Source of the DNA: an uncultured Ruminococcus sp.
Lineage (GTDB): Bacteria > Bacillota > Clostridia > Oscillospirales > CAG-272
Length of the DNA: 55,587 bases
NCBI GenBank assembly: GCA_902779285.1
Contig: CACZAZ010000002.1
Location: 1-55,587 of the forward strand
Reading direction: 5' to 3'
Shown here: in pieces, positions 4,619 through 24,354 of the stretch
Layout of the letters: every line of letters begins with the position of its first letter
Numbering within the stretch: position 1 is the stretch's first letter
Notes under the pieces: generated by a model
Told to the model about the DNA's origin: nothing
Database searches by the model: none
What the model saw: only the letters and a program-made list of their open reading frames with translations
Program-made: the position numbers and the translations under genes

Positions 4619-6328
4619 ATGATCGCAAGACCCGAGCATCCGAAACCGCAATTCGAGCGCGAAGCGTGGCGCAACCTCAACGGGAAGTGGGATTTCCGCT
4701 TCGACGAATCGGACAGCGGCGAGGAAAGAGGGCTGATGAAAGCCGGCGCCGCCTACGACCGCGAGATCGTCGTTCCGTTCTGCCCCGAAAGCCGGCTGTC
4801 GGGGATCGGAGAGGTCGATTTTCACGCGGCGGTCTGGTACAGGCGGACCTTTGAACTTTCCGAAAAGGAGCTCGCGGGACGCGTTCTGCTCCATTTCGGC
4901 GCCGTCGACCACACCTGCAAGGTCTACGTCAACGAGGTCGAGGTCGGGCGGCACGTCGGGGGCTACGTCTCCTTCTGCTTTGATATCACCGACGCCGCGA
5001 AAGCCGGTGAGAATACCGTCGTCGTGTACGCAAAGGACGACAGCCGCGACCCGATGATCCCGTCGGGCAAGCAGAGCGACCGGTACGCCTCCTACGGCTG
5101 CTATTACACCCGGACCACCGGGATCTGGCAGACCGTCTGGCTTGAGTTCGCGCCCGAAACGCGCCTCGTTTCGACGAGATACTATCCCGACGCCGAAAAC
5201 GGCGTTGTGACCGTACAGGCGAAGCTCGAGGGAAACGCGGATCTTACCGCCGTCGCCTCCTTCGAGGGGCGCGAGGTCGGACGCGCGACGGTCAAGGGCG
5301 CGGGCGGGACGGTCACCTTCCCGATCCCCCTCTCGGAAAAGCATCTGTGGGAGATCGGGGACGGCAAACTCTACGATCTTACCTTCACCTTTGGTGAAGA
5401 TAAAGTCAAGAGTTATTTCGGTCTCCGCGATATCAAGATGGACGGGATGAAGTTCCGCCTGAACGGGAGATCGGTCTTTCAGCGGCTGGTGCTGGATCAG
5501 GGATTCTATCCCGACGGGATCTACACCGCCCCCTCCGACGAGGAACTGAAAAACGATATCCTCCGCTCGCTCGCGATGGGATTCAACGGCGCGCGTCCGC
5601 ACGAAAAGATCTTTGAGGAACGCTACCTCTACTACTGCGACAAACTCGGCTATATCGTCTGGGGCGAATACCCGAACTGGGGGCTCGACCACACGAAGCC
5701 GGAGGCGATCTATCCCATCCTGCCCGAATGGATCGAGGAGATGGAGCGCGACTTCAACCACCCCGCCATCGTCGGCTGGTGTCCCTTCAACGAAACGTGG
5801 GATCAGCACCATTGCCGTCAGTTCGATCCCCTGCTCTCGCTGGTCTACCGCACCACAAAGGCGATCGACCCGACGCGCCCCGCGATCGACACCAGCGGGA
5901 ACTTCCACGTCGAATCCGACATCCACGACGTCCACGACTACGAGCAGAAGCCCGACGTGATGGTCGAACACTTCGCCTCGCTGGTCACGGACGGCACCTA
6001 TATCGAGCCGATGAAGCGCAACGAGCGGCAGCCCTATACGCCCGGTAAGCCGGTCTTCGTCAGCGAGTACGGCGGGATCGGATGGAGCGTGGACGAATCC
6101 GCCTGGGGCTACGGCAACACCCCCAAAACCAAAGAGGAGTTCCTCACCCGGCTGAAGGGGCTGACCGACGCGCTGCTCGACAACCCGAAGATCTTCGCTT
6201 TCTGCTACACCCAGCTCACCGACGTCGAGCAGGAACAGAACGGTCTCTACACCTACGATCGCCGTCCGAAGTTCCCACCCGAACAGATCCACCCGATCTT
6301 CTCCCGCAAAGCCGCGATCGAGGATTGA
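4619..6328 (+). CDS. Glycoside hydrolase family 2 (beta-galactosidase/beta-glucuronidase-like)
   Basis: NLNGKWDF, LHFGAVD, GIWQTVWLE, NHPAIVGWCPFNE (acid/base), VSEYGG (nucleophile); AAGGAG RBS. Confidence 0.9.
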   Translation: MIARPEHPKPQFEREAWRNLNGKWDFRFDESDSGEERGLMKAGAAYDREIVVPFCPESRLSGIGEVDFHAAVWYRRTFELSEKELAGRVLLHFGAVDHTCKVYVNEVEVGRHVGGYVSFCFDITDAAKAGENTVVVYAKDDSRDPMIPSGKQSDRYASYGCYYTRTTGIWQTVWLEFAPETRLVSTRYYPDAENGVVTVQAKLEGNADLTAVASFEGREVGRATVKGAGGTVTFPIPLSEKHLWEIGDGKLYDLTFTFGEDKVKSYFGLRDIKMDGMKFRLNGRSVFQRLVLDQGFYPDGIYTAPSDEELKNDILRSLAMGFNGARPHEKIFEERYLYYCDKLGYIVWGEYPNWGLDHTKPEAIYPILPEWIEEMERDFNHPAIVGWCPFNETWDQHHCRQFDPLLSLVYRTTKAIDPTRPAIDTSGNFHVESDIHDVHDYEQKPDVMVEHFASLVTDGTYIEPMKRNERQPYTPGKPVFVSEYGGIGWSVDESAWGYGNTPKTKEEFLTRLKGLTDALLDNPKIFAFCYTQLTDVEQEQNGLYTYDRRPKFPPEQIHPIFSRKAAIED

Positions 6329-6344
6329 CGGAACGAAATCACAC

Positions 6345-6378
6345 TCCCCTGAAGCAGGAATGTTTCAGGGGGGTTTTT
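6345..6378 (+). terminator. Intrinsic terminator after GH2
   Basis: CCCCTGAAGCA-GGAA-TGTTTCAGGGG hairpin followed by a T run. Confidence 0.75.
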
Positions 6379-6428
6379 GTATTTCAGGGAGGGATATCCC
6401 GAAAACGGGACGCCGCGGGAAGGGGGGC

Positions 6429-6457
6429 TTGACAAATCTTTCCGACTCTGCTATACT
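6429..6457 (+). promoter_or_regulatory. Near-consensus sigma-A promoter upstream of the rpoA-paralog unit
   Basis: TTGACA (6429-6434), 17 bp, TATACT (6452-6457), with TG extended -10. Confidence 0.75.
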
Positions 6458-6568
6458 GATAGCCCTTTCGCTCCCGGGAGCGATTTTTGCCATTCCTTAT
6501 CAAAAAAAGTAAAAATCGGTTTTCGCGAGTATATTATGAAAAAAGAAACTCGGCAGCCTCCCCGACGC

Positions 6569-6612
6569 GTCGCTTTTCCGGCGACCGGATCGGTTCCGTT
6601 TTATCGTACAAT
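6569..6612 (+). promoter_or_regulatory. Dyad GTCGC-N7-GCGAC plus -10 (copy 1)
   Basis: GTCGCTTTTCCGGCGAC (6569-6585), 21 bp, TACAAT (6607-6612); same architecture at 7855 and 8681. Confidence 0.75.
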
Positions 6613-6648
6613 GAGAACGAAAACGAGGAATACAAGGAGAAGAGCGAA

Positions 6649-6846
6649 GTGAGTGAGAAACTGTTTAAGATCACGCTGATCGCAGGATCGGCAATGATGG
6701 GTTGTCTGGTACTTATGCTGATCGTTCCGTGTTACGTAACGATCGCCCTTTATTCCGTCAGTACGTTAACTACCGTCGTAACCGGTTTGCTGTCGAACTT
6801 TACGAACAAGGACGGCTCTCACGGCGGCAACAAGTTTATGCAATGA
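6649..6846 (+). CDS. Small 65-aa hydrophobic (1-2 TM) protein upstream of rpoA paralog
   Basis: AAGGAG RBS, GTG start, MSEKLFKITLIAGSAMMGCLVLMLIVPCYVTIALYSVSTLTTVVTGLLSNF...; lower GC than flanks. Confidence 0.55.
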   Translation: MSEKLFKITLIAGSAMMGCLVLMLIVPCYVTIALYSVSTLTTVVTGLLSNFTNKDGSHGGNKFMQ

Positions 6847-6887
6847 AAACCGTCAATAACGATCAATAACCAAAAGGAGAAAAAACC

Positions 6888-7838
6888 GTGTTCGAATTCT
6901 GCAAACCCGACGTCACCGTAAAAGTCAGCGAGAATCAAAGGAGCGCGACCGCATTTATCCAGCCGTTGGATCGCGGCTACGGGATCACCGTGGGCAACTC
7001 GATCCGCCGCGTGCTGCTCTCGGGGATGCCCGGCGCCGCCGCCGTGTGGATCAAGATCGACGGCGTGCAGCACGAGTTCACGACGCTCGACGGCGTCTGC
7101 GAGGACGTCCCGGAGATTGTTCTGAACGTCAAGGGGATCGTCGCCAAACTGCAAACCGACGAAGTAAAACTCGCAGAGATCGACGAGACCGGTCCCCGCA
7201 CCGTGAAAGCAGGGGATATCAAATCCGACGGCGACCTTGAGATCGTCAACCCCGGGCAGGTGATCGCGACGCTCGCGGACGGCGTGCGTTTCCAGATGGA
7301 GATCGCGTTTGCAAAGGGGCAGGGCTACGTTCCCGCCGAGAGAAACAAAGAACTCTATTCCCCGCTGCCGCTCGGCTCGATTTCGGTCGATTCGATCTTT
7401 ACTCCCGTCCAAAAGGTCGAATACTCGGTCGAGAATACCCGCGTCGGCGGCGACGTCGATTACGACAAACTGATCCTCTCCGTCACGACCAACGGCGCCC
7501 TCTCCCCCGACGCCGCGATCGCCACCGCGTCGAACGTCCTGATCCGGCATTTCGAGTGCCTGTCCTCGATCGCCGGAGGGGAAACGCCGAAAATGACCGG
7601 CGAAGACGAAAAGGACAAGCCGCTCTCCCCCGCCCTCTCCGCCGACGTCGAGCAGCTCGCCCTCTCCCGCCGGAGCTACAACTGCCTGAAACGCTCCGAG
7701 ATCGATACCGTCGGCGACCTCGTCTCCCGCACCGAAGAGGAGATCCTGAGGATCCGGAACCTCGGGCAAAAGTCCTTTGAGGAGATCCGCGACAAGATCG
7801 CGGAACTGGGTCTGACGTTCAAAAAAGAGGAAGAGTAA
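6888..7838 (+). CDS. rpoA: DNA-directed RNA polymerase alpha subunit, diverged orphan copy (probable paralog)
   Basis: PLDRGYGITVGNSIRRVLLS, IDGVQHEF, EDVPEIVLNVK, DSIFTPV, VENTRVG..DYDKL; CTD LSRRSYNCLKR and IRNLGQKS; AAGGAG RBS, GTG start; no rpsK/rpsD/rplQ neighbours. Confidence 0.95.
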   Translation: MFEFCKPDVTVKVSENQRSATAFIQPLDRGYGITVGNSIRRVLLSGMPGAAAVWIKIDGVQHEFTTLDGVCEDVPEIVLNVKGIVAKLQTDEVKLAEIDETGPRTVKAGDIKSDGDLEIVNPGQVIATLADGVRFQMEIAFAKGQGYVPAERNKELYSPLPLGSISVDSIFTPVQKVEYSVENTRVGGDVDYDKLILSVTTNGALSPDAAIATASNVLIRHFECLSSIAGGETPKMTGEDEKDKPLSPALSADVEQLALSRRSYNCLKRSEIDTVGDLVSRTEEEILRIRNLGQKSFEEIRDKIAELGLTFKKEEE

Positions 7839-7854
7839 AACTGCGGTTTTCCGC

Positions 7855-7898
7855 GTCGCTTTTCAGGCGACCAAGGCAGACGGTCTTTGAGGTAAAAT
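7855..7898 (+). promoter_or_regulatory. Dyad GTCGC-N7-GCGAC plus -10 (copy 2)
   Basis: GTCGCTTTTCAGGCGAC (7855-7871), 21 bp, TAAAAT (7893-7898). Confidence 0.75.
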
Positions 7899-7986
7899 AA
7901 CGGCAGAAAAAGAGTTTGTCTTGAAAAGCGCCTCTTTCTACGCAAAGTCGTTCCGAAATATGATAAGGGGAAAAGGAGAATTGACC

Positions 7987-8637
7987 ATGCACGATCGGAC
8001 CTATGAAAGCAATTATCCCGCCCTTTTCGCCGAAGTGATGCGGGAACGCCCGACCGACGAGCAAAACGGCGATGGAAAACCGACGCCTCCGCCGATAGGG
8101 CATGCGTCCCCCGAAGCGCTCGCCGGTCTGCGCTCGTTTATTGAAGAACACACGCAAAGAGTATCCGACGTATCCTTTGACGAGCCCGTATGCGCCGATG
8201 ATTTGGATTGGGGCCCTGTCTGCGGTGAGAGGCGGCAGATTTGTATGTCCCCGCCTCCCCGACGCGACAAGAGGTTTTCGCTCCCGCCCCTGAAGCCGAG
8301 TTTTCAAAAACAGTTCCTGTTGAAGATGATCGAGCGGGATATGACGGCGGTCGATTGCTACACCCGGGCAAACATAGACCGCAAACTTTTCTCCAAGATC
8401 TTTTCGAGCGAAACGTACAAGCCGCGCAAGGAAACCGCGATCGCCCTGATCATGACGCTCTCGCCCTCGGAAAGTGAAGCGGACGAACTTTTGAAATCGC
8501 TCGGCTACTGTCTTTCCGAAAGCAATCTTTTCGATCTGGTGATCCGATACTGCGTAAAAAACAAGATCCACGATCTCTTTGCCGTCAATGAATATCTCTA
8601 CGAGATGGATCTTCCGCTTCTCGGTTCCTGCGAATGA
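7987..8637 (+). CDS. Protein with C-terminal XRE/HTH-like domain of the type found on Firmicutes macro-domain proteins; no macro domain here
   Basis: DCYTRANIDRKLFSKI...YKPRKETAIAL...ADELLKSLGYCLSESNLFDLVIRY...NEYLYEMDLPLLG; AAAGGAG RBS before ATG 7987; N-terminal half is Pro/charged-rich. Confidence 0.7.
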   Translation: MHDRTYESNYPALFAEVMRERPTDEQNGDGKPTPPPIGHASPEALAGLRSFIEEHTQRVSDVSFDEPVCADDLDWGPVCGERRQICMSPPPRRDKRFSLPPLKPSFQKQFLLKMIERDMTAVDCYTRANIDRKLFSKIFSSETYKPRKETAIALIMTLSPSESEADELLKSLGYCLSESNLFDLVIRYCVKNKIHDLFAVNEYLYEMDLPLLGSCE

Positions 8638-8646
8638 TCCTTTTTC

Positions 8647-8680
8647 AAAAGACTCCGTGCGGTTCGCACGGAGTTTTTTT
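8647..8680 (+). terminator. Intrinsic terminator
   Basis: ACTCCGTGCG-GTT-CGCACGGAGT followed by a T run. Confidence 0.8.
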
Positions 8681-8724
8681 GTCGCTTTGGAGGCGACCTG
8701 TTGCAGCTCGTTTTGTCGTAAAAT
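8681..8724 (+). promoter_or_regulatory. Dyad GTCGC-N7-GCGAC plus -10 (copy 3)
   Basis: GTCGCTTTGGAGGCGAC (8681-8697), 21 bp, TAAAAT (8719-8724). Confidence 0.75.
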
Positions 8725-8779
8725 AAGGACGTCGGAAGAAAAACCGTCTGAAACAACATAACGAAAGAAGGAGCAATCA

Positions 8780-9409
8780 ATGGAAAAACGGATCACGGAA
8801 CTGGTATTCATTCTGGACAGGAGCGGGTCGATGGAGCATATCCGGCGGGCGACCGTCGCGAACTTCAACGAACTGCTCGACGCGCAGAAAGCCGAAGTAC
8901 ACGGCGACGAGGCGCGGATCTCGGTCTACTCGTTCAATCAGGCGCTCGACAAGGTTTGTTTCCGTTCGCCGCTCGACGAGGCGCGTCCGCTGACCGAGAG
9001 GAACTACGTCCCGAACGGCATGACCGCCCTGAACGACGCGGCGTGCGCCGTTTTGAACGAGATCTCCGGAGCGCAGAAAGAGGAGATCGACGGGGGCAGA
9101 AAGATCGTCACGGTCGTCTGCATCATCACCGACGGGCTCGAGAACGCGAGCCGGTTTTACAGACGCGCCGACTTAAAGCGTCTGATCGCGGCGAAAAAAG
9201 AGGAGGGGTGGAACTTCCTTTTCGCCGGGGCGAACTTCGACGTTGACGAGGAGGGCGAAGAACTCGGATTCGACAAGCGGGAACGGATCTCGTTTGAGGC
9301 GAGCGAGCGCGGCGTACACGATCTTGCGGAGCATGTTTCCTTTTGCTGCGCTTCCCTGCGCGAAGACCCCGAAGACGCGCCCGTCTCCCGTCCTCCCCGC
9401 CGCAAATAA
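8780..9409 (+). CDS. von Willebrand factor A (vWA) domain protein
   Basis: Complete MIDAS: LVFILDRSGSM (DxSxS), GMTALND (T), IITDGLENAS (D); GWNFLFAGAN. Confidence 0.9.
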   Translation: MEKRITELVFILDRSGSMEHIRRATVANFNELLDAQKAEVHGDEARISVYSFNQALDKVCFRSPLDEARPLTERNYVPNGMTALNDAACAVLNEISGAQKEEIDGGRKIVTVVCIITDGLENASRFYRRADLKRLIAAKKEEGWNFLFAGANFDVDEEGEELGFDKRERISFEASERGVHDLAEHVSFCCASLREDPEDAPVSRPPRRK

Positions 9410-9427
9410 AAACGGAAGGACGCCGAA

Positions 9428-9505
9428 ATGCTGTTCGAACTGATGATCGTTTTGATAATCGCCGGCATTCTTTCCGTGTACGATCACTACAAAAAGGGCG
9501 AATGA
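9428..9505 (+). CDS. Putative 25-aa single-TM peptide MLFELMIVLIIAGILSVYDHYKKGE
   Basis: GGAAGGA RBS-like element, ATG, hydrophobic core with charged tail; lies between the vWA stop and the terminator. Confidence 0.45.
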   Translation: MLFELMIVLIIAGILSVYDHYKKGE

Positions 9506-9517
9506 TCCCCCTAACAA

Positions 9518-9543
9518 AAGCGGCTGCCCGAGGGCAGCCGCTT
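9518..9543. terminator. Probable bidirectional terminator
   Basis: AAGCGGCTGCCC-GA-GGGCAGCCGCTT perfect hairpin between convergent genes. Confidence 0.65.
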
Positions 9544-9547
9544 GCGT

Positions 9548-9730
9548 TTACGGTTTTTCGTCCTGCTCCGTTTGTTCCGCCGTCTTTTTGCGGCGGCGGA
9601 CGCATTCGGTGAGAAGGTACTCGATCTGACCGTTCAGCGAGCGGAAGTCGTCCGCCGCCCACTGCGAAAGATCGGCGTAGAGTTTTGCCGAGAGACGGAG
9701 CGGGATCTGCTTCTTGCCCTCCGGCTCCAT
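9548..9730 (-). CDS. Arc-like ribbon-helix-helix DNA-binding protein
   Basis: [39 protein letters not shown]; start overlaps the SPFH stop (TGATG). Confidence 0.8.
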
Positions 9731-10752
9731 CAGTAGAGACTCCCGGAGTTGACGACGGGCTGGGCGTCGTGGTTGCCGCAGAGAACGACGAGCAGATTGG
9801 AGACCATCGTCGCCTTGCGTTCCTCGTCAAGCTGAACGGTCCCCTTTTCCGCGAGCCGATCGAGCGCCATTTCGACCATCCCGACCGCGCCGTCGACGAT
9901 CATCTTGCGGGCGTCGATGATAGCGGACGCCTGCTGTCTCTGGAGCATCACGGCGGCGATCTCGGGCGCGTAGGCGAGGTAGGTGATCCGCGCCTCGACG
10001 ATCTCAAGACCCGCCTCGTTCACCTTCGACTGGATCTCGTCGCGGATGCGGAGCGCGACCAGTTCGCTCGAGCCGCGCAGACTGCCCTCGTCCGCGATCC
10101 CGTCGCCCGTCGTGTCGACGTTGGGAGCGACGTCGTAGGGATAGAGCCGGACGATATTCCGGAGCGCGGCGTCGCATTGGAGCGAGAGGTATTCCTTGTA
10201 GTTATCGACGTTGAAGACCGCCTTCGCGGTGTCGACCACGCGCCAGGTCACGGCGATCCCGATCTCGACCGGGTTGCCGAGGCAGTCGTTGATCTTCTGC
10301 CGGTTGTTGCTGAGCGTCATGATCTTGAGCGAAATGCGGGTGTTCGCGACCGCCGCGGCGTTCTTCTGATTCGAGGTCTGCCGCTCCGCGGGGACGGAGG
10401 AGGTCGAAACGTCGCCGCTCTGATTCAGTTTGGTCTTGGCGGCGGGGTTGACCGACGTGCAGAACGGATTGACCCAGTAGAAGCCGTCGCCCTTCAGCGT
10501 GCCGTAGTATTTACCGAACAGCGTGAGCACCAGCGCCTCCTGCGGTTTCAGCACCTTGAAGCCGAGGATCAGGATCCAGCCGAGGCAGAGATACGCGACG
10601 CAGGTACCGAAAAGCCCCGGATAGGCGGGCGTATCCTCCGTCCCGAGCGAGGCGCAGACCAGCAGTCCGACGAACGCCGCGACGTAGAGCGCGAGCATCA
10701 GGATCAGCATCAAAAAGCCGATCTTTTTCCCTGTGATGACCTTTTCTTCCAT
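9730..10752 (-). CDS. SPFH/band-7 domain membrane protein
   Basis: Two N-terminal TM segments; [59 protein letters not shown]. Confidence 0.9.
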
Positions 10753-19737: not shown

Positions 19738-22700
19738 ATGAAGTTTGAAGAACTGTCCTCCAAACCGGATTTTTCCGAGATCCAGCCGGAAGTCCTGAAA
19801 TACTGGAAGGACGATCACACCTTTGAAAAATCGGTCGAGAGACCGACCGGGGGCGAGATCGTCTTCTACGACGGGCCTCCGTTCCCGACGGGCAAACCGC
19901 ATCACGGGACGGTCCTCGTCTCGTTCATCAAGGATATGATCTCCCGCTACTGGACGATGAACAACTACAGCGTTCCGCGCGTCTGGGGCTGGGACTGCCA
20001 CGGGCTTCCCATCGAGAACCAGGCGGAAGTGCAGATGGGGATCGAGGACAAGAACCAGATCGAAAAAACCATCGGGATCGACGTCTTCAACGACAAGTGC
20101 CGCGAGATCGTCTCGAACAACAACGAGGCGTGGCGCGAGTACGTCGAGCAGATGGCGCGCTGGGTGGACTACGACGGCGCGTACAAGACTATGAACACGC
20201 CCTTTATGGAGAGCGTGATGTGGGCGTTCAAGACCTGCTACGACAAGGGGCTGATCTACCGCGACTACCGCGTGACCCCCTACTGCACGCATTGCGAGAC
20301 TTCGCTCTCGATCTCGGACACCCGCGAATCGGATTCGACGAGACCGCGTCAGGATCGCTGGGTGGCGGTCAAATTCAGGACCTCGCTCACGGAAAACGGA
20401 AAACCCGTCTGTCTGCTTGCCTGGACGACCACCCCCTGGACCCTGCCGTCCAACCTCTGCCTCGCGGTCGGCCGGGACCTTCGCTACGCCTTCGTCGACG
20501 TGGGCGAGGAGATCTACGTCGCCTGCAAGGACACGTTGAAGAACTTCGTCAAGGTGTTCGGGGAGACCCCGGCGATCGTCCGCGAGTGCGCGGGCAGCGA
20601 CCTGCTCGGGATCGAATACGAGCCCATCTTCCCCTACTTTGCCGACCGGAAAAAGGACGGCGCGTTCCGCGTGGTCTCCGCCGACTACGTGGGCTCGGAC
20701 GAGGGCGTGGGGATCGTTCACACCGCTCCGGCGTTCGGTGAAGACGACTACTGGACCTGCAAGAACAACGGCATCCCGCTGGTCAACCCGGTCGACGCGA
20801 AAGGGCGCTTTACCCCCGAGATCACCGACTTCTACCCCCTGCAGGAGGAGAAGAACGTGATCGAGATGAATCCGATCGTGATCCGCTGGCTGTACGACAA
20901 GGGGATCGCCGTCGCGGACGGATCGATCGTCCACAACTATCCGCATTGCTGGCGCTGCAAACGTCCCCTGATCTACAAGGCGATGGACGCCTACTACTTC
21001 AATATCGGCAAGATCAAGGACAAGCTGATCGACTTCAACGGTAAGATCAACTGGATGCCCGAGACGGTCAAATACGGTCGTTTCGGCAACTGGCTTGCGG
21101 GCGCCCGCGACTGGAACATCTCGCGCAACCGCTACTGGTCCACCCCGATCCCGATCTGGACCTGCCCCGACTGCGGGAAAAAGGTCGTCGTTGGTTCCAT
21201 CGACGAGATCGAGAAGCTCTCGGGCGTCCGTCCCGACGATCTGCACCGGCAGTACCTCGACAAGATCCACTTCCCCTGCCCCGACTGCGGCGCGAAGATG
21301 ACCCGCGTGCCGGAGGTGCTCGACTGCTGGTTCGAGAGCGGGAGCGTGCCGTTCGCGTCCAAGCACTATCCGTTTGAAAACAAGGAGTGGTTCGAGAATC
21401 ACTTCCCCTCGGATTTCGTCGTCGAATACACCGGGCAGATCCGGTGCTGGTTCTACTATCTGCACGTCCTCTCGACGGCGCTCTTCGACCGTCCGGCGTT
21501 CAAGAACGGCGTCGTACACGGCACCATCCTCGCAAAAGACGGCAAGAAACTCTCGAAATCCTCGAAGAACTACACCGACCCGATGGAACTGATGAAGAAG
21601 TTCGGTACCGACGCCTTCCGGCTCTATCTGTACCAGACCAACGCCATGCTGATCGGGGACCTGCTCTTCGACGAGGCGGGGATCCTCGACGCGTATCAGC
21701 AGATCGTGCTTCCGTTCTGGAACGCCTGCAACTTCTTCATTTCCTACGCCAATATCGACGGTTTCGAACCGAAGACGGGGCTGCCCGAGAGCGATAACCA
21801 GCTCGACCGGTGGATCCTCGCGAAACTCGAGCAGACCGAGAAGACCATCACCGAGAATATGAACGCCTACCGCGTCAACCGCTACGTCGACGCGATCGCC
21901 TCGCTTGTGGACGGGCTGACCAACTGGTACATCCGCCGCTCGCGCAAGCGTTTCTGGGCGTCGGGGTACTCGGATGATAAGGCGGCGGCGTACGACACGC
22001 TCTACTACGTGCTGGTCAACCTCACCAAGCTGCTCGCTCCCGTTGCCCCGATCATCTCGGAGAAGATCTACCGCATCCTGACGGGCGAAGAATCGGTGCA
22101 TCTTGCCGCATGGCCGAATATCCCCGAGACCTACCGCGACGACGGGCTGGTCGAACGGGTCGATCTCGTCCAGCGGCTGATCTCGCTCGCGCGTTCGATC
22201 CGGCAGAAGAACCGGATCAAGAATCGGCAGCCGCTGCGCACCTTGAAGATCGCGCTCTCCGACCCTGCCGCGACCGAATCGATCAAACCGTTCGCCGCCG
22301 TGATCGCGGAGGAAATGAACGTCAAAGAGGTCCTGTTCATCGAGCGCGTCGACGATATCGCCTCGGTCGGCTACGACCCGAACTTCAACGAGATCCGCGC
22401 CCTCTGCCCCGACAAACTGCCCGCCGTCATCAAGGCGGTCAAGACCGGCGCTTTCGCGCTCCACGGCGACACCGTGACCGTCAAACTCGACGGGGGCGAC
22501 GCGGAACTCGACGCGAAGATCATCCTCGTCAAGTACACCGCGAAGGACGGCGCGTTCATCGCGAGCGAAGCCGGAATGGTGGTCTCTCTGGATCTTTCGA
22601 TCGACGAGGACCTCAAAGACGAAGGGCTTGCCCGCGAGATCGTCCGCAACGTGCAGGACGCCCGCAAGAGCGTTGGGCTCGCCATCACCGACCGCATCAT

Positions 22701-22851
22701 CCTGCAGGTCGAAAAAGGCAAGCTGCCCGAAAAGTGGACCGCGTTCATCTGCGGCGAGACCCTTGCCGAGATCGGATCGGTCGCGTCCCCCCTCTCCACC
22801 GTCGAGATCGAGGACGAGGGCATCGCGATCCTGCTCGGGAAGAAGGGCTGA
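19738..22851 (+). CDS. ileS: Isoleucyl-tRNA synthetase, type 2 (IleRS2)
   Basis: FYDGPPFPTGKPHHGT, WGWDCHGLP, LAWTTTPWTLPSN, GIVHTAPAFGEDD, DWNISRNRYW, KLSKS, NWYIRRSRKRFW, EGLAREIV. Confidence 0.95.
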   Translation: MKFEELSSKPDFSEIQPEVLKYWKDDHTFEKSVERPTGGEIVFYDGPPFPTGKPHHGTVLVSFIKDMISRYWTMNNYSVPRVWGWDCHGLPIENQAEVQMGIEDKNQIEKTIGIDVFNDKCREIVSNNNEAWREYVEQMARWVDYDGAYKTMNTPFMESVMWAFKTCYDKGLIYRDYRVTPYCTHCETSLSISDTRESDSTRPRQDRWVAVKFRTSLTENGKPVCLLAWTTTPWTLPSNLCLAVGRDLRYAFVDVGEEIYVACKDTLKNFVKVFGETPAIVRECAGSDLLGIEYEPIFPYFADRKKDGAFRVVSADYVGSDEGVGIVHTAPAFGEDDYWTCKNNGIPLVNPVDAKGRFTPEITDFYPLQEEKNVIEMNPIVIRWLYDKGIAVADGSIVHNYPHCWRCKRPLIYKAMDAYYFNIGKIKDKLIDFNGKINWMPETVKYGRFGNWLAGARDWNISRNRYWSTPIPIWTCPDCGKKVVVGSIDEIEKLSGVRPDDLHRQYLDKIHFPCPDCGAKMTRVPEVLDCWFESGSVPFASKHYPFENKEWFENHFPSDFVVEYTGQIRCWFYYLHVLSTALFDRPAFKNGVVHGTILAKDGKKLSKSSKNYTDPMELMKKFGTDAFRLYLYQTNAMLIGDLLFDEAGILDAYQQIVLPFWNACNFFISYANIDGFEPKTGLPESDNQLDRWILAKLEQTEKTITENMNAYRVNRYVDAIASLVDGLTNWYIRRSRKRFWASGYSDDKAAAYDTLYYVLVNLTKLLAPVAPIISEKIYRILTGEESVHLAAWPNIPETYRDDGLVERVDLVQRLISLARSIRQKNRIKNRQPLRTLKIALSDPAATESIKPFAAVIAEEMNVKEVLFIERVDDIASVGYDPNFNEIRALCPDKLPAVIKAVKTGAFALHGDTVTVKLDGGDAELDAKIILVKYTAKDGAFIASEAGMVVSLDLSIDEDLKDEGLAREIVRNVQDARKSVGLAITDRIILQVEKGKLPEKWTAFICGETLAEIGSVASPLSTVEIEDEGIAILLGKKG

Positions 22852-22868
22852 CCTCGTATTTCAAAAAA

Positions 22869-22909
22869 AAGACCCCGTTGCTCCAGATCGGAGCGACGGG
22901 GTTGCTTTT
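22869..22909. terminator. Bidirectional terminator between ileS and the AT-rich gene
   Basis: ACCCCGTTGCTCC-AGATC-GGAGCGACGGGGT flanked by A and T runs. Confidence 0.75.
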
Positions 22910-22921
22910 TACGAAAACCTA

Positions 22922-23956
22922 TCAAAAACTTACTTTGATATCTCGACAACTCAATCTGTGCGACAGGGCATAATCCAATTCCTCTTTTTCGCAAAAAAGA
23001 ACAATGCTCCCGTCTTCGCAGTAAATAGAGTTGAAAAGCCGAAAAACTTCTTTCGGCAATCGTTGAATCTTCACATACAGAGAAGCACAATTATCATCTG
23101 CCAATTTCGTCATTGAAGGATCCGAAAAGGCAGCATAAAACAACCGATCTTCGTACGCTCCAACATACGATCCAAACAAATACGATAAAAACGGATCAGG
23201 AGTACCCACCCCGTATATATTACCGAATCTAATACAGGTGCTCTGATAATAAAAGAGGTCAAAATAATATGCGCTATTTACCAACAGTAACGCGGTTTGG
23301 GGAGATATCGGTATATATGCATATCGGTGGTCAGAATCAAGCGTGTTTTCAAGAATACAAAACCTGTCGGAAATCATTATTACAGGAGAATCTGCGCGAA
23401 CAATCGACAAGTGCAACCCTCTAGTCAAATAAGAAGACAAAGAATCGTTTTGATTCGTATTTGAATCAGTCTTGTCCTTTTTTCTTTCGTCAATCGCTCT
23501 TATCCTTTCAAATTCATCTATAATAAGTGACGTGACTTTAATCGCGTCTTCCTGCGATTCGATTCTGTGTGTTCCGATCAAATACCTGTTGCTCCTGTAA
23601 ATGCCGGATTCGTCGCTTTTAATAACTTCACAAGTGTTAGCATGACGATAAGCGCAGAGGGAACAATATAATTTCAATAATTCCAACTGTTTTTTTGGTA
23701 GACAAACGTTCTCCAAAGCAGCGTCAATTTGCGAAATCAGCGGTGCAATCTCACATTCAAATGAAGCAATACGGTTTTCTAAAGCGTCATCTTGTTCGCC
23801 CATCGAATAATAACGGTTGGACGAAAAGTCGGTATGCTCATAAACGGGTCGGATCCTCTTTTGTTCTGCTCTGCTTTTGTCGTACACTTTCCCGCCTTGT
23901 GTTTTCCATTTGCGAATATGAAAAGCGGGATAAAGATGATTGTGTTGTTTCACCAT
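22922..23956 (-). CDS. AT-rich DUF4238-like protein (344 aa), probably horizontally acquired
   Basis: Likely start MVKQHNHLYPAFHIRKW resembles the DUF4238 N-terminal H-x-x-P-x-F-x-x-x-x-W pattern; later LENRIASFE, ISDRFCIL, YIPISPQTALLL; two sampled 60-mers are 33% and 40% GC. Confidence 0.65.
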   Translation of the reverse strand: MVKQHNHLYPAFHIRKWKTQGGKVYDKSRAEQKRIRPVYEHTDFSSNRYYSMGEQDDALENRIASFECEIAPLISQIDAALENVCLPKKQLELLKLYCSLCAYRHANTCEVIKSDESGIYRSNRYLIGTHRIESQEDAIKVTSLIIDEFERIRAIDERKKDKTDSNTNQNDSLSSYLTRGLHLSIVRADSPVIMISDRFCILENTLDSDHRYAYIPISPQTALLLVNSAYYFDLFYYQSTCIRFGNIYGVGTPDPFLSYLFGSYVGAYEDRLFYAAFSDPSMTKLADDNCASLYVKIQRLPKEVFRLFNSIYCEDGSIVLFCEKEELDYALSHRLSCRDIKVSF

Positions 23957-24354
23957 CAGAACGCCAGGGTTTCGGGCGGGGCGGTGAAGCTCGAAAGGGT
24001 GGCGGTGGCGCGGGTGAAGCAGTAGACCGCGGTGTTGCCGTCGTCGGGGTCGTACATGGCTTTCAGTTCGGGGTAGCGGTCGAGCATCGCGACGCGGGCG
24101 TCGCGATCGTCGAGTTCGCGCATCTCCCCGGCGATCCGGAGCCACTTCCCGTCCTTGCAGGCGCAGAGTTCGACCTTCGGATTCCGGTCGATCTGTTTGG
24201 CGACGTCCTTTTTCTTCCCGGTCTGGATGCAGAGTTTGCCGTCGTAGAGCAGGATGGTGCCGAAGGGACGAACGCGGGCTTGGTCGCCGTCAACGGTGGC
24301 GAGGTAGTAGGTCCCGGCGTCGCGCAGGAAATCGCAAACGGTGGAAAGCGTCAT
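23956..24354 (-). CDS. Pyridoxamine 5'-phosphate oxidase-like flavin-binding protein
   Basis: YYLATVDGDQARVRPFG, IQTGKKKDVAKQIDRNPKVELCA, WLRIAG. Confidence 0.85.
   Translation of the reverse strand: MTLSTVCDFLRDAGTYYLATVDGDQARVRPFGTILLYDGKLCIQTGKKKDVAKQIDRNPKVELCACKDGKWLRIAGEMRELDDRDARVAMLDRYPELKAMYDPDDGNTAVYCFTRATATLSSFTAPPETLAF

Follow-up and report, generated by a model that had tools for sequence, protein, structure and literature searches.

The window analysed here is a stretch of 55,587 nucleotides from an uncultured Ruminococcus sp. and represents one entire contig (C2) of its source genome (G000), a metagenome-assembled genome (MAG) of 2.0 Mb with 95% completeness and 2.6% contamination. 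At positions 6888–7838 of its forward strand lies rpoA2, an open reading frame (ORF) of 316 codons encoding an orphan, full-length alpha subunit of RNA polymerase (RNAP), referred to below as alpha2. Bacterial RNAP is taught as (alpha)2-beta-beta'-omega, with two identical alphas. The rpoA2 gene is situated outside the rpsM-rpsK-rpsD-rpoA-rplQ operon, with a GH2 gene on one side and a regulator and a vWA gene on the other; GT2 and GH2 genes lie upstream, and a vWA, an RHH and a Band_7 gene downstream. The locus comprises the following features:

6343–6384 (forward strand): terminator of the GH2 gene, a 14-bp stem plus T-run directly after the GH2 stop at 6328
6429–6457 (forward strand): candidate sigma-70-type promoter TTGACA-17-TGcTATACT with 11/12 matches, in a stretch conserved in all locus variants
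6569–6612 (forward strand): predicted promoter P1 from a motif scan, with the dyad GTCGCTTTTCCGGCGAC(C) at 6569–6586, 20 nt, and the −10 element TACAAT at 6607–6612
6649–6846 (forward strand): ORF of 65 aa with two hydrophobic segments and a GTG start, AAGGAG 9 nt upstream, resembling the 65-aa gene of loci L114 and L115
6888–7838 (forward strand): rpoA2, 316 aa, assigned from domain, model, structure and tree evidence
7855–7898 (forward strand): predicted promoter P2 from a motif scan, with the dyad GTCGCTTTTCAGGCGAC(C), 20 nt, and TAAAAT at 7893–7898
7987–8637 (forward strand): truncated regulator of 216 aa, a linker and a C-terminal XRE/Cro-type HTH, from comparison of homologues and structures
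8647–8685 (forward strand): terminator hairpin after the regulator gene, 15-nt arms of 93% complementarity plus T-run (inverted repeat I7)
8681–8724 (forward strand): predicted promoter P3, with the dyad GTCGCTTTGGAGGCGAC(C), 20 nt, and TAAAAT at 8719–8724, conserved in loci L114, L115 and L116
8780–9409 (forward strand): vWA protein of the stand-alone type, 209 aa, MIDAS motif DRSGS (phrog_7371), from its family match and RNA-library pieces

The start codon of rpoA2 is GTG, 8 nt downstream of a GGAG; a reverse-strand ORF (6819–7769) is its shadow frame. Within alpha2, the Pfam domains RNA_pol_L (residues 26–222), its insert (55–172) and the C-terminal domain (CTD; 242–306) were found, and PF01193, PF01000 and PF03118 all exceed their own cut-offs. 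The protein scores 338 bits against the RpoA equivalog model TIGR02027, the cut-off of which is 227.8, and aligns end to end with the alphas of solved Firmicute RNAPs (8i23, 6wvj). An AlphaFold2 (AF2) model of the single chain has a pLDDT of 86.8, with helix H1 at 31–45, helix H3 at 207–229, a disordered linker at 239–246 and a confident CTD. The original prediction, made from the letters of the window alone, had described a complete alpha N-terminal domain (NTD) and CTD beside glycosidase and accessory genes, and this is borne out by Pfam, TIGR02027 and the flanking genes; the motifs it quoted are found at residues 36–41 (GNSIRR), 259–268 (LSRRSYNCLK) and 290–296 (RNLGQKS).

A search of the whole genome recovered a canonical rpoA on contig C9, in the order secY-adk-map-rpsM-rpsK-rpsD-rpoA-rplQ, the product of which is 51% identical to alpha2. 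The suggestion that a canonical rpoA should be sought next to rpsD/rplQ thus had a positive outcome, and rpoA2 is a genuine second copy as had been proposed; since the operon copy is also present, simple relocation of rpoA is excluded. Two yak-rumen Clostridia MAGs from sister species, G115 and G101, likewise contain canonical rpoA and rpoA2 each. Beyond these the gene is sparsely distributed. Of 201 species genomes sampled from the genus, 3 carry a member of the close rpoA2 clade, and among 401 genomes from 178 genera of the order, two rpoA matches were seen only in G000 and G356 (76% complete). Furthermore, a search of about 185,000 species genomes returned only G115 and G101. A protein collection yielded around 10 clusters that are 76–97% identical to alpha2, followed by a gap down to 56% or less.

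To place these proteins, a maximum-likelihood (ML) tree of 62 sequences was used, which is unrooted. The window's clade (A) and a wider orphan group (W) together split from all canonical sequences with support of 100/98, and the stem of clade A measures about 1.0 substitutions per site. A tree in which clade A is constrained to join the canonical clade of the genus is worse by a delta lnL of 51 and is rejected by the approximately unbiased (AU) test (p = 0.002). By tree and AU test alike, a recent duplication within the genus was rejected. Group W consists of about 20 clusters; all nine of the nine contexts examined lie outside ribosomal operons, as do all clade-A loci. Derived residues (E. 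coli numbering here and below) are common to A and W, both in helix H3 (A213P, A221S, K222N, L230C, F231L/I) and in the CTD (F267Y, V292I, L300F, V303I, L314F). Hence, on the strength of the tree, the AU test, the non-ribosomal contexts and the shared residues, rpoA2 belongs to an orphan RpoA family and is not a local duplicate; gut and rumen Clostridia are the hosts among which this family has spread, apart from the ribosomal operon. The rpoA2 locus reveals a whole family of second alphas in uncultured gut and rumen Clostridia, previously undescribed, which are under selection, pass from lineage to lineage, and have putative operators of their own and recurrent partner genes. An ancient duplication and a transfer from outside would both be compatible with the split of A and W in the unrooted tree. 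A phage origin of rpoA2 was rejected, as the gene matches no PHROG and has no structural genes of phages in its vicinity. In a search for a clean empty site in relatives, only the RHH-Band_7 pair, an RHH_5-like 60-aa gene coupled to a Band_7/SPFH gene at 9548–10752 on the reverse strand, proved syntenic in the more distant genus members G050 and G017; it is the sole part of the neighbourhood that is, too little to set the insertion borders of the locus.

Functional residues were compared across 11 clade-A, 21 wider-group and 59 canonical sequences. The beta contacts R45 and L48 are retained in clade A, the beta' contacts E80, K86, V173, V180 and K200 are identical or conservatively replaced in all 11 members, and dimer residues 35, 38, 46 and 227 are kept. 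In the 265 determinant, R265, C269, G296, K298 and S299 are present in 11/11 and N268 in 10/11; the wider group keeps all of these in 21/21, except C269 (18/21). Alpha2 itself has R265, N268, N294, G296, K298 and S299, as predicted, and C269 in addition. The residue preceding R265 is Arg in alpha2, again as described beforehand, and V in 57 of the 59 canonical sequences; in clade A, this position 264 is Q in 9/11 and R in 2/11, one of the latter being the window. Other changes specific to the clade-A CTD are E259Q, D261 to N, A or S, A273S and M289I, and group W retains V264, E259 and D/E261. We take residues 259 and 261 to be the acidic part of the '261 determinant', the contact for sigma region 4 in E. 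coli. The earlier interpretation is partly supported, in that the alphaCTD is altered beside R265 (V264 to R/Q), and the acidic residues at 259/261 are lost as well. The analogy with Francisella does not extend to the origin of the gene, given the absence of a lineage-specific duplication (AU p = 0.002) and the occurrence in 3/201 species.

The gene evolves under purifying selection. Pairwise dN/dS for rpoA2 between G000, G115 and G101 is 0.19–0.28, compared with 0.12–0.36 for neighbouring genes and 0.02–0.17 for canonical rpoA; the relaxed selection that had been named as a possible outcome is not seen. Values are below 0.35 in both the NTD and the CTD, with 0.06–0.25 for the NTD and a less constrained linker, and residues 26–50 include a single variable site across the 11 clade-A proteins. 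At the protein level, alpha2 diverges 2.5–40 times as much as canonical alpha when the same pairs of genomes are compared. Its GC3 of 0.82 equals that of native neighbours. A pseudogene was rejected on the dN/dS values plus the intact orthologues. As for expression, pieces of rpoA2 at ≥95% identity are found in four RNA libraries at a depth of 2.4–7.2, and the vWA gene, too, is represented in one of the four; for canonical rpoA, the depth in these runs is 2–6.6, a rough comparison because the pieces are assembled contigs. An in-frame 3-nt deletion near window position 7821, in the acidic C-terminal tail of rpoA2 (KKEEE), was observed in three independent metagenomes.

The promoters of the locus share a dyad. 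The motif GTCGC-N7-GCGAC, in the form GTCGC(T/C)TT...GCGACC, has three copies in the 2.0-Mb genome, all of which are found here (6569, 7855 and 8681). Each is positioned exactly 20 nt ahead of a −10-like hexamer. A −35 match is missing in all three cases, and the distance from the dyad centre to the start of the −10 element is about 30 nt, which places the centre at about −42. These three dyad promoters precede the 65-aa ORF with rpoA2, the regulator ORF at 7987–8637, and the vWA gene, respectively. In loci L114 and L115, which are about 85% identical, the half-sites are retained, as are a spacer of 7 nt and the distance of 20 nt, that of P1 included, and the spacer bases differ; the dyad is absent from the G115 and G101 variants of the locus. 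Since this putative operator is common to their promoters, rpoA2, the XRE-type regulator and the vWA gene would constitute one small regulon, and the 65-aa ORF with its two predicted transmembrane segments is probably co-transcribed with rpoA2 from P1. The sigma-70-type candidate at 6429–6457 falls within blocks homologous to L034 and L114. A small GC hairpin plus T-run follows it by 10 nt, at 6468–6483, and the homology between variants stops inside this hairpin, at 6476; it could be a leader/attenuator or a recombination joint. An Rfam scan of 6200–9700 gave no credible family.

The regulator itself is incomplete in the window. The C-terminal 100 residues of the 216-aa protein are 42–44% identical to the C-termini of Macro-domain proteins, and its closest relatives are 327–365 aa long, with a Cys-rich segment and a small beta domain. 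In an AF2 model of the 327-aa form, the beta domain best matches the C-terminal Tudor domain of UvrD (7egt_B; probability 1.0, TM 0.75, 42% identity over 38 columns), and 6yi2, the RNAP-binding Tudor domain of UvrD, is a further structural match; the Pfam family PcrA_UvrD_tudor recurs below its gathering threshold in five homologues. The helical domain matches 434 Cro, C.Esp1396I, SinR, DdrO and ImmR with probabilities of 0.9–0.97. Compared with L114 (5397–7083), the window lacks about 1 kb at position ~8005, and with it a 191-aa gene and the N-terminal half of the regulator; the deletion joins the remainder of the regulator to the first codons of the 191-aa gene, yielding an in-frame HTH-only protein. 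The XRE-type HTH (7987–8637) and the vWA protein (8780–9409) are present in the window and the sensor domain is missing there. Another locus, L116, is 98.6% identical downstream and has the complete 327-aa regulator gene. Full-length regulators resemble RNAP-binding Tudor proteins (the C-terminal Tudor of UvrD/PcrA, the RID of CarD/Mfd, and RapA) by virtue of their Tudor domain. However, this domain is fused to an XRE-type HTH and not to a helicase as in UvrD/PcrA-type proteins, its binding to RNAP is putative, and the window's own copy is devoid of it.

Close strains share rpoA2 and vWA but carry different cassettes around these conserved genes. The G115 locus (L034 = G115:C123, 4364–8701) has an 87-aa wHTH-like gene and an 85-aa HTH_73 gene upstream of rpoA2; past rpoA2 it encodes a protein of 274 aa, the N-terminus of which is Tudor-like, and a DUF2075/Schlafen-type helicase of 658 aa, which matches the PADLOC candidate PDC-S41 with 921 bits in the G115 variant only. 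In the G101 locus, rpoA2 is followed by HTH_73. L114 carries RelB-like and 65-aa genes, rpoA2, the 191-aa gene and the full regulator, and L116 has an Mrr_N-like gene together with the full regulator. The rpoA2 alleles of L114 and G115 are near-identical (dN 0.013) despite their different cassettes, and one metagenome contains both upstream variants.

More distant orphan alpha genes have partners of the same kinds. L053 contains Macro-HTH, vWA and orphan rpoA; L093 (1028–5942) contains Macro-HTH, vWA, an ADP-ribosylglycohydrolase (ARH), AsnC, an alphaCTD-only protein of 133 aa and orphan rpoA; and L118 (1–6942) repeats the L093 arrangement, its alphaCTD-only protein included, with extra NYN and CpsB genes. 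The alphas of L093 and L118 are 64% identical and belong to different W subclades as deep branches. Weak matches to DSP-phosphatase and YpsA-SLOG occur near these two clusters. In L092, an alphaCTD-only gene is followed by orphan rpoA. ADP-ribosyltransferase (ART) domains were not found in L092, L093 or L118. All vWA proteins of orphan loci are phrog_7371. In clade A, L053, L093 and L118 alike, the orphan alpha adjoins a vWA gene of this one family and a gene with a shared HTH domain; vWA is the most constant partner of orphan alpha genes. This association persists even though the alphas have diverged to 50% identity. Across the class, the alphaCTD-only marker was found in 1 of 399 genomes (G681), in an unrelated context with a single rpoA.

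The vWA gene has a wider distribution. It occurs in 7 of 40 relatives, and in 4 of 5 loci inspected Macro-HTH stands directly upstream, with no second rpoA. At L095, L096, L098 and L099 (in G028, G020, G031 and G027), a gene with this same C-terminal HTH-like domain directly precedes vWA, again without a second rpoA in these relatives, and at L095, L098 and L099 it encodes a full Macro-HTH protein; the pair looks like a widespread accessory module. Since the Macro-HTH and vWA pair also occurs without a second rpoA, the orphan alpha appears to have joined a mobile two-gene module.

Clusters of this composition have a counterpart in the literature. Iyer, Burroughs, Anantharaman and Aravind (2022) predicted ARG-centric host systems against viral ADP-ribosylation (PMC9503650, section 3.8), which consist of an ARG without ART, a sensor-HTH regulator, phosphatases, a vWA chaperone, Macro and variable effectors, and are marked by fast evolution and module swapping. 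L093 and L118 resemble these systems in having ARH without a recognisable ART, a sensor-HTH one-component regulator, vWA and Macro, along with weak DSP-type phosphatase matches, variable add-ons, fast evolution and module swapping. In contrast, the sensor is Macro (or Tudor) and not Nudix or WYL, and the clusters add an RNAP alpha paralogue and the alphaCTD-only protein, RpoA being unmentioned in that work. The window's locus shares with the ARG-centric type an HTH regulator, here short of its sensor domain, and a neighbouring vWA protein, and it has neither ARG nor Macro.

Taken together, the evidence points us to a conflict-type module for which rpoA2 would supply, on induction, a spare or alternative alpha, a reading which we advance tentatively and give slightly less than an even chance. 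Because alpha2 retains everything needed for dimerising, for binding beta and beta' and for binding UP-element DNA, it would be expected to enter the RNAP core and replace one canonical alpha or both. The gene would be expressed from its own promoter, apart from the ribosomal genes, and the dyad at about −42 would act as an operator tying it to the XRE-type regulator and vWA. The resulting polymerase would display an altered alphaCTD surface beside R265, with the acids at 259/261 gone and V264 changed to Q/R, and a remodelled dimerisation helix H3. The older genomic home of the family would be the cluster of Macro-HTH, vWA, ADP-ribosylglycohydrolase, AsnC and alphaCTD-only genes, and an inducible spare would keep or redirect transcription when the housekeeping alpha is attacked. 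That alpha2 might be such a spare is suggested by the match between its relatives' cluster and the predicted host systems that undo phage ADP-ribosylation. If alpha2 does enter the polymerase, the cell would possess a switchable core enzyme with a different surface for activators and UP elements. The locus would also offer a compact candidate regulon, with one dyad, three promoters and an HTH regulator that in its full-length versions bears an RNAP-type Tudor domain.

Several points weigh against this reading. Entry of alpha2 into RNAP is something we infer from its sequence and not from direct evidence, and the same holds for regulation by the HTH protein and for the link to ADP-ribosylation, both of which stay putative. 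Within the dimer cluster named in PMC3294249, to which positions 39 and 50 belong, two of six positions deviate in clade A, namely L39V and S/T50G, Q replaces an Arg (E. coli R150) that is invariant elsewhere, and helix H3 is remodelled across the orphan family; given these changes, assembly of alpha2 is possibly impaired or partner-specific. Having arisen by deletion, the regulator in the window may have lost its activity. The RNA pieces are low-depth assembled contigs that may reflect DNA carry-over. The co-occurrence of orphan and canonical rpoA is established for three genomes, G000, G115 and G101, 5 of 9 W contexts have no partner gene at all, and the Macro-HTH and vWA pair is common without a second rpoA. 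Finally, no homologues of Macro, ARH, ART, HTH_73 or PDC-S41 were found in G000 (for HTH_73 and PDC-S41, none elsewhere in the genome), and since Macro, ARH and ART are lacking there, the window's locus would be linked to ADP-ribose by descent only.

The alternative that survives best is a physiological one, in which alpha2 would serve as a Francisella-like alternative alpha, pairing with alpha1 as an oriented heterodimer or with itself as a homodimer, and would provide a second form of RNAP for ordinary regulation (stress, growth phase) with no connection to phage or ADP-ribosylation. We regard it as rather unlikely. It is consistent with the retained assembly and DNA-binding determinants, the purifying selection, the regulated promoters predicted for the gene itself, and the lack of ADP-ribose enzymes in G000; moreover, the changes in H1 and H3 (L39V, S50G, A213P, A221S, K222N, L230C, F231L) could shift dimer specificity. 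There is also the precedent of Francisella, the one studied exception to two identical alphas, where two rpoA genes supply a heterodimer in RNAP (PMC3294249, PMC1891329). The likeness lies in having two rpoA genes that are both full-length yet differ in sequence, of which just one sits in the ribosomal operon, with the second copy accelerated and residues of the dimerisation helices changed. However, the two Francisella genes go back to a duplication inside that lineage, are found throughout the genus and supply an oriented heterodimer in which only alpha1 binds beta, whereas rpoA2 belongs to a separate, horizontally distributed family found in 3/201 species, keeps both R45 and L48, and has a predicted operator-type promoter of its own along with vWA and HTH partners. 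Other rpoA duplications, in Chloroflexus spp., Streptomyces avermitilis, Psychromonas ingrahamii and Leptospira borgpetersenii (PMC3294249), likewise give more than one rpoA per genome, and the Chloroflexus paralogues also keep assembly residues; nevertheless, these are lineage-specific or very recent segmental duplicates, for which no family, partner genes or dyads have been described. Literature searches on rpoA paralogues returned only Francisella, the duplications named in PMC3294249, and plastid cases. What tells against this alternative is the rarity of the gene (3/201 species of the genus, 1–2 of 401 genomes of the order) together with the rejection of a local duplication, the swapping of flanking cassettes between near-identical alleles, including the candidate defence helicase, RelB-like and Mrr_N-like genes, and the recurrence of Macro, ARH and vWA neighbours in distant members.

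A narrower version of the spare-alpha reading, which we consider quite unlikely, holds that the orphan alpha, the alphaCTD-only protein, Macro-HTH, vWA and ARH form a system guarding RNAP against alpha-modifying phage enzymes, by means of erasers or by re-surfacing near R265. Here the spare alpha would be induced and, in some lineages, cleaned by the erasers; the window's lineage would rely instead on an alpha with a new surface around R265, so that transcription could outlast the attack. Such attacks are known: phage T4 Alt and ModA ADP-ribosylate Arg265 of alpha (PMC2988021), and Rac-mediated cleavage of alpha by a phage has been described (PMC7552054). These cases make alpha, and notably R265, a phage target, and alpha2 keeps R265 with changed neighbours; they are, however, attack mechanisms in Proteobacteria, and no such enzyme was found here. 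The eraser-bearing lineages keep V264, E259 and D261, and the eraser-less clade A has changed them, a pattern that fits the proposal but proves nothing. The earlier idea of resistance to modification gains indirect support from the Macro and ADP-ribosylglycohydrolase genes next to distant orphan alphas; by this account, the window's clade would have lost its Macro/ARH genes and instead changed the residues around R265. Should the ADP-ribose link be true, a host answer to phage modification of Arg265 becomes testable with defined genes, namely those for alpha2, the alphaCTD-only protein, ARH, Macro-HTH and vWA, and a guard of this kind would be the first host counter-measure built on a duplicate of the targeted core-enzyme subunit.

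It is improbable, in our estimate, that alpha2 works outside RNAP as a decoy or sensor, where it (and the alphaCTD-only protein of its relatives) would bait alpha-targeting phage ADP-ribosyltransferases or proteases, soaking them up or reporting to vWA-like partners. The clade stem of about 1 substitution per site, protein evolution 2.5–40 times faster than that of the canonical copy, the alphaCTD-only paralogues adjoining orphan alpha genes, and the island-like variability of the locus would all suit a bait, and phages do ADP-ribosylate or cleave alpha (PMC2988021; PMC7552054). Yet a bait needs the CTD only, and it is the beta/beta'-binding core of the NTD (residues 26–50) that is most conserved. 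In addition, none of the known defence models in PADLOC fits alpha2 or the partners fixed beside it; the only similarity there is an alphaCTD-like stretch of the BREX kinase PglW (E 1.7e-6), a segment which for its part would speak for a bait.

A horizontally acquired hitch-hiker copy that is decaying or functionless is already disfavoured and, to our judgement, very improbable: it would explain the faster evolution relative to the canonical copy, the deletion-truncated neighbouring regulator and the very patchy distribution in the genus, but not an ORF that is intact in about 10 clusters at 76–97% identity and about 20 more distant ones, dN/dS of 0.2–0.28 like that of neighbouring housekeeping-type genes, invariant functional residues, ameliorated codon usage, and pieces in RNA libraries.

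Scarcely credible is an assembly or binning artefact, by which the second rpoA would stem from another organism of the metagenome: G000 is indeed a MAG with 2.6% estimated contamination, and G207 and G010, MAGs of the same genus, show two canonical copies through mixing, but the composition of C2 is among the most typical of its bin, the same pair of copies occurs in three MAGs, the flanking genes diverge from G115 and G101 in step with those of the canonical locus, the gene order recurs in independent samples, and rpoA2, unlike the copies of the mixed MAGs, is not in a rpsD-rpoA-rplQ setting. In tetranucleotide profile, C2 shows a correlation of 0.995 with the remainder of the bin and C9 one of 0.988, the median being 0.988. 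At the canonical locus, G000 is 92.5% identical to G115 and 86.8% to G101, and at the rpoA2 locus 86–91% and 75–85%, respectively; the flanking genes at both rpoA loci thus show parallel divergence from these sister species. A single 3.4-kb contig from an independent bovine-gut sample covers 5869–9279 at 97% identity. On composition, parallel divergence, the presence of both copies in three MAGs and the independent contigs, contamination and mis-binning were rejected.

Two further MAGs with apparent second copies were rejected as orphan carriers. The partial second match in G010 (C70) is a canonical operon copy at a contig end with no blastn similarity to the window, and both matches in G207 (C37, C27) are in rpsD-rpoA-rplQ contexts; because both copies are of the operon type, these double copies point to mixing of the MAGs. 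The GC content of G207 is about 41–44%, against 59% in G000, which points to a very wide GC range in this GTDB genus. Within the window, 22000–24000 has a GC of 0.50 in a genome of 0.59. As for the canonical rpoA, its dS between G000 and G115 (L003:8049–9044 versus L050) is 0.06, and other genes of this genome pair show 0.26–0.48; the ribosomal operons of the two are 97.8% identical and the adjacent ABC transporter genes 92.5%. This low dS suggests either strong codon constraint or a recent exchange of the operon.

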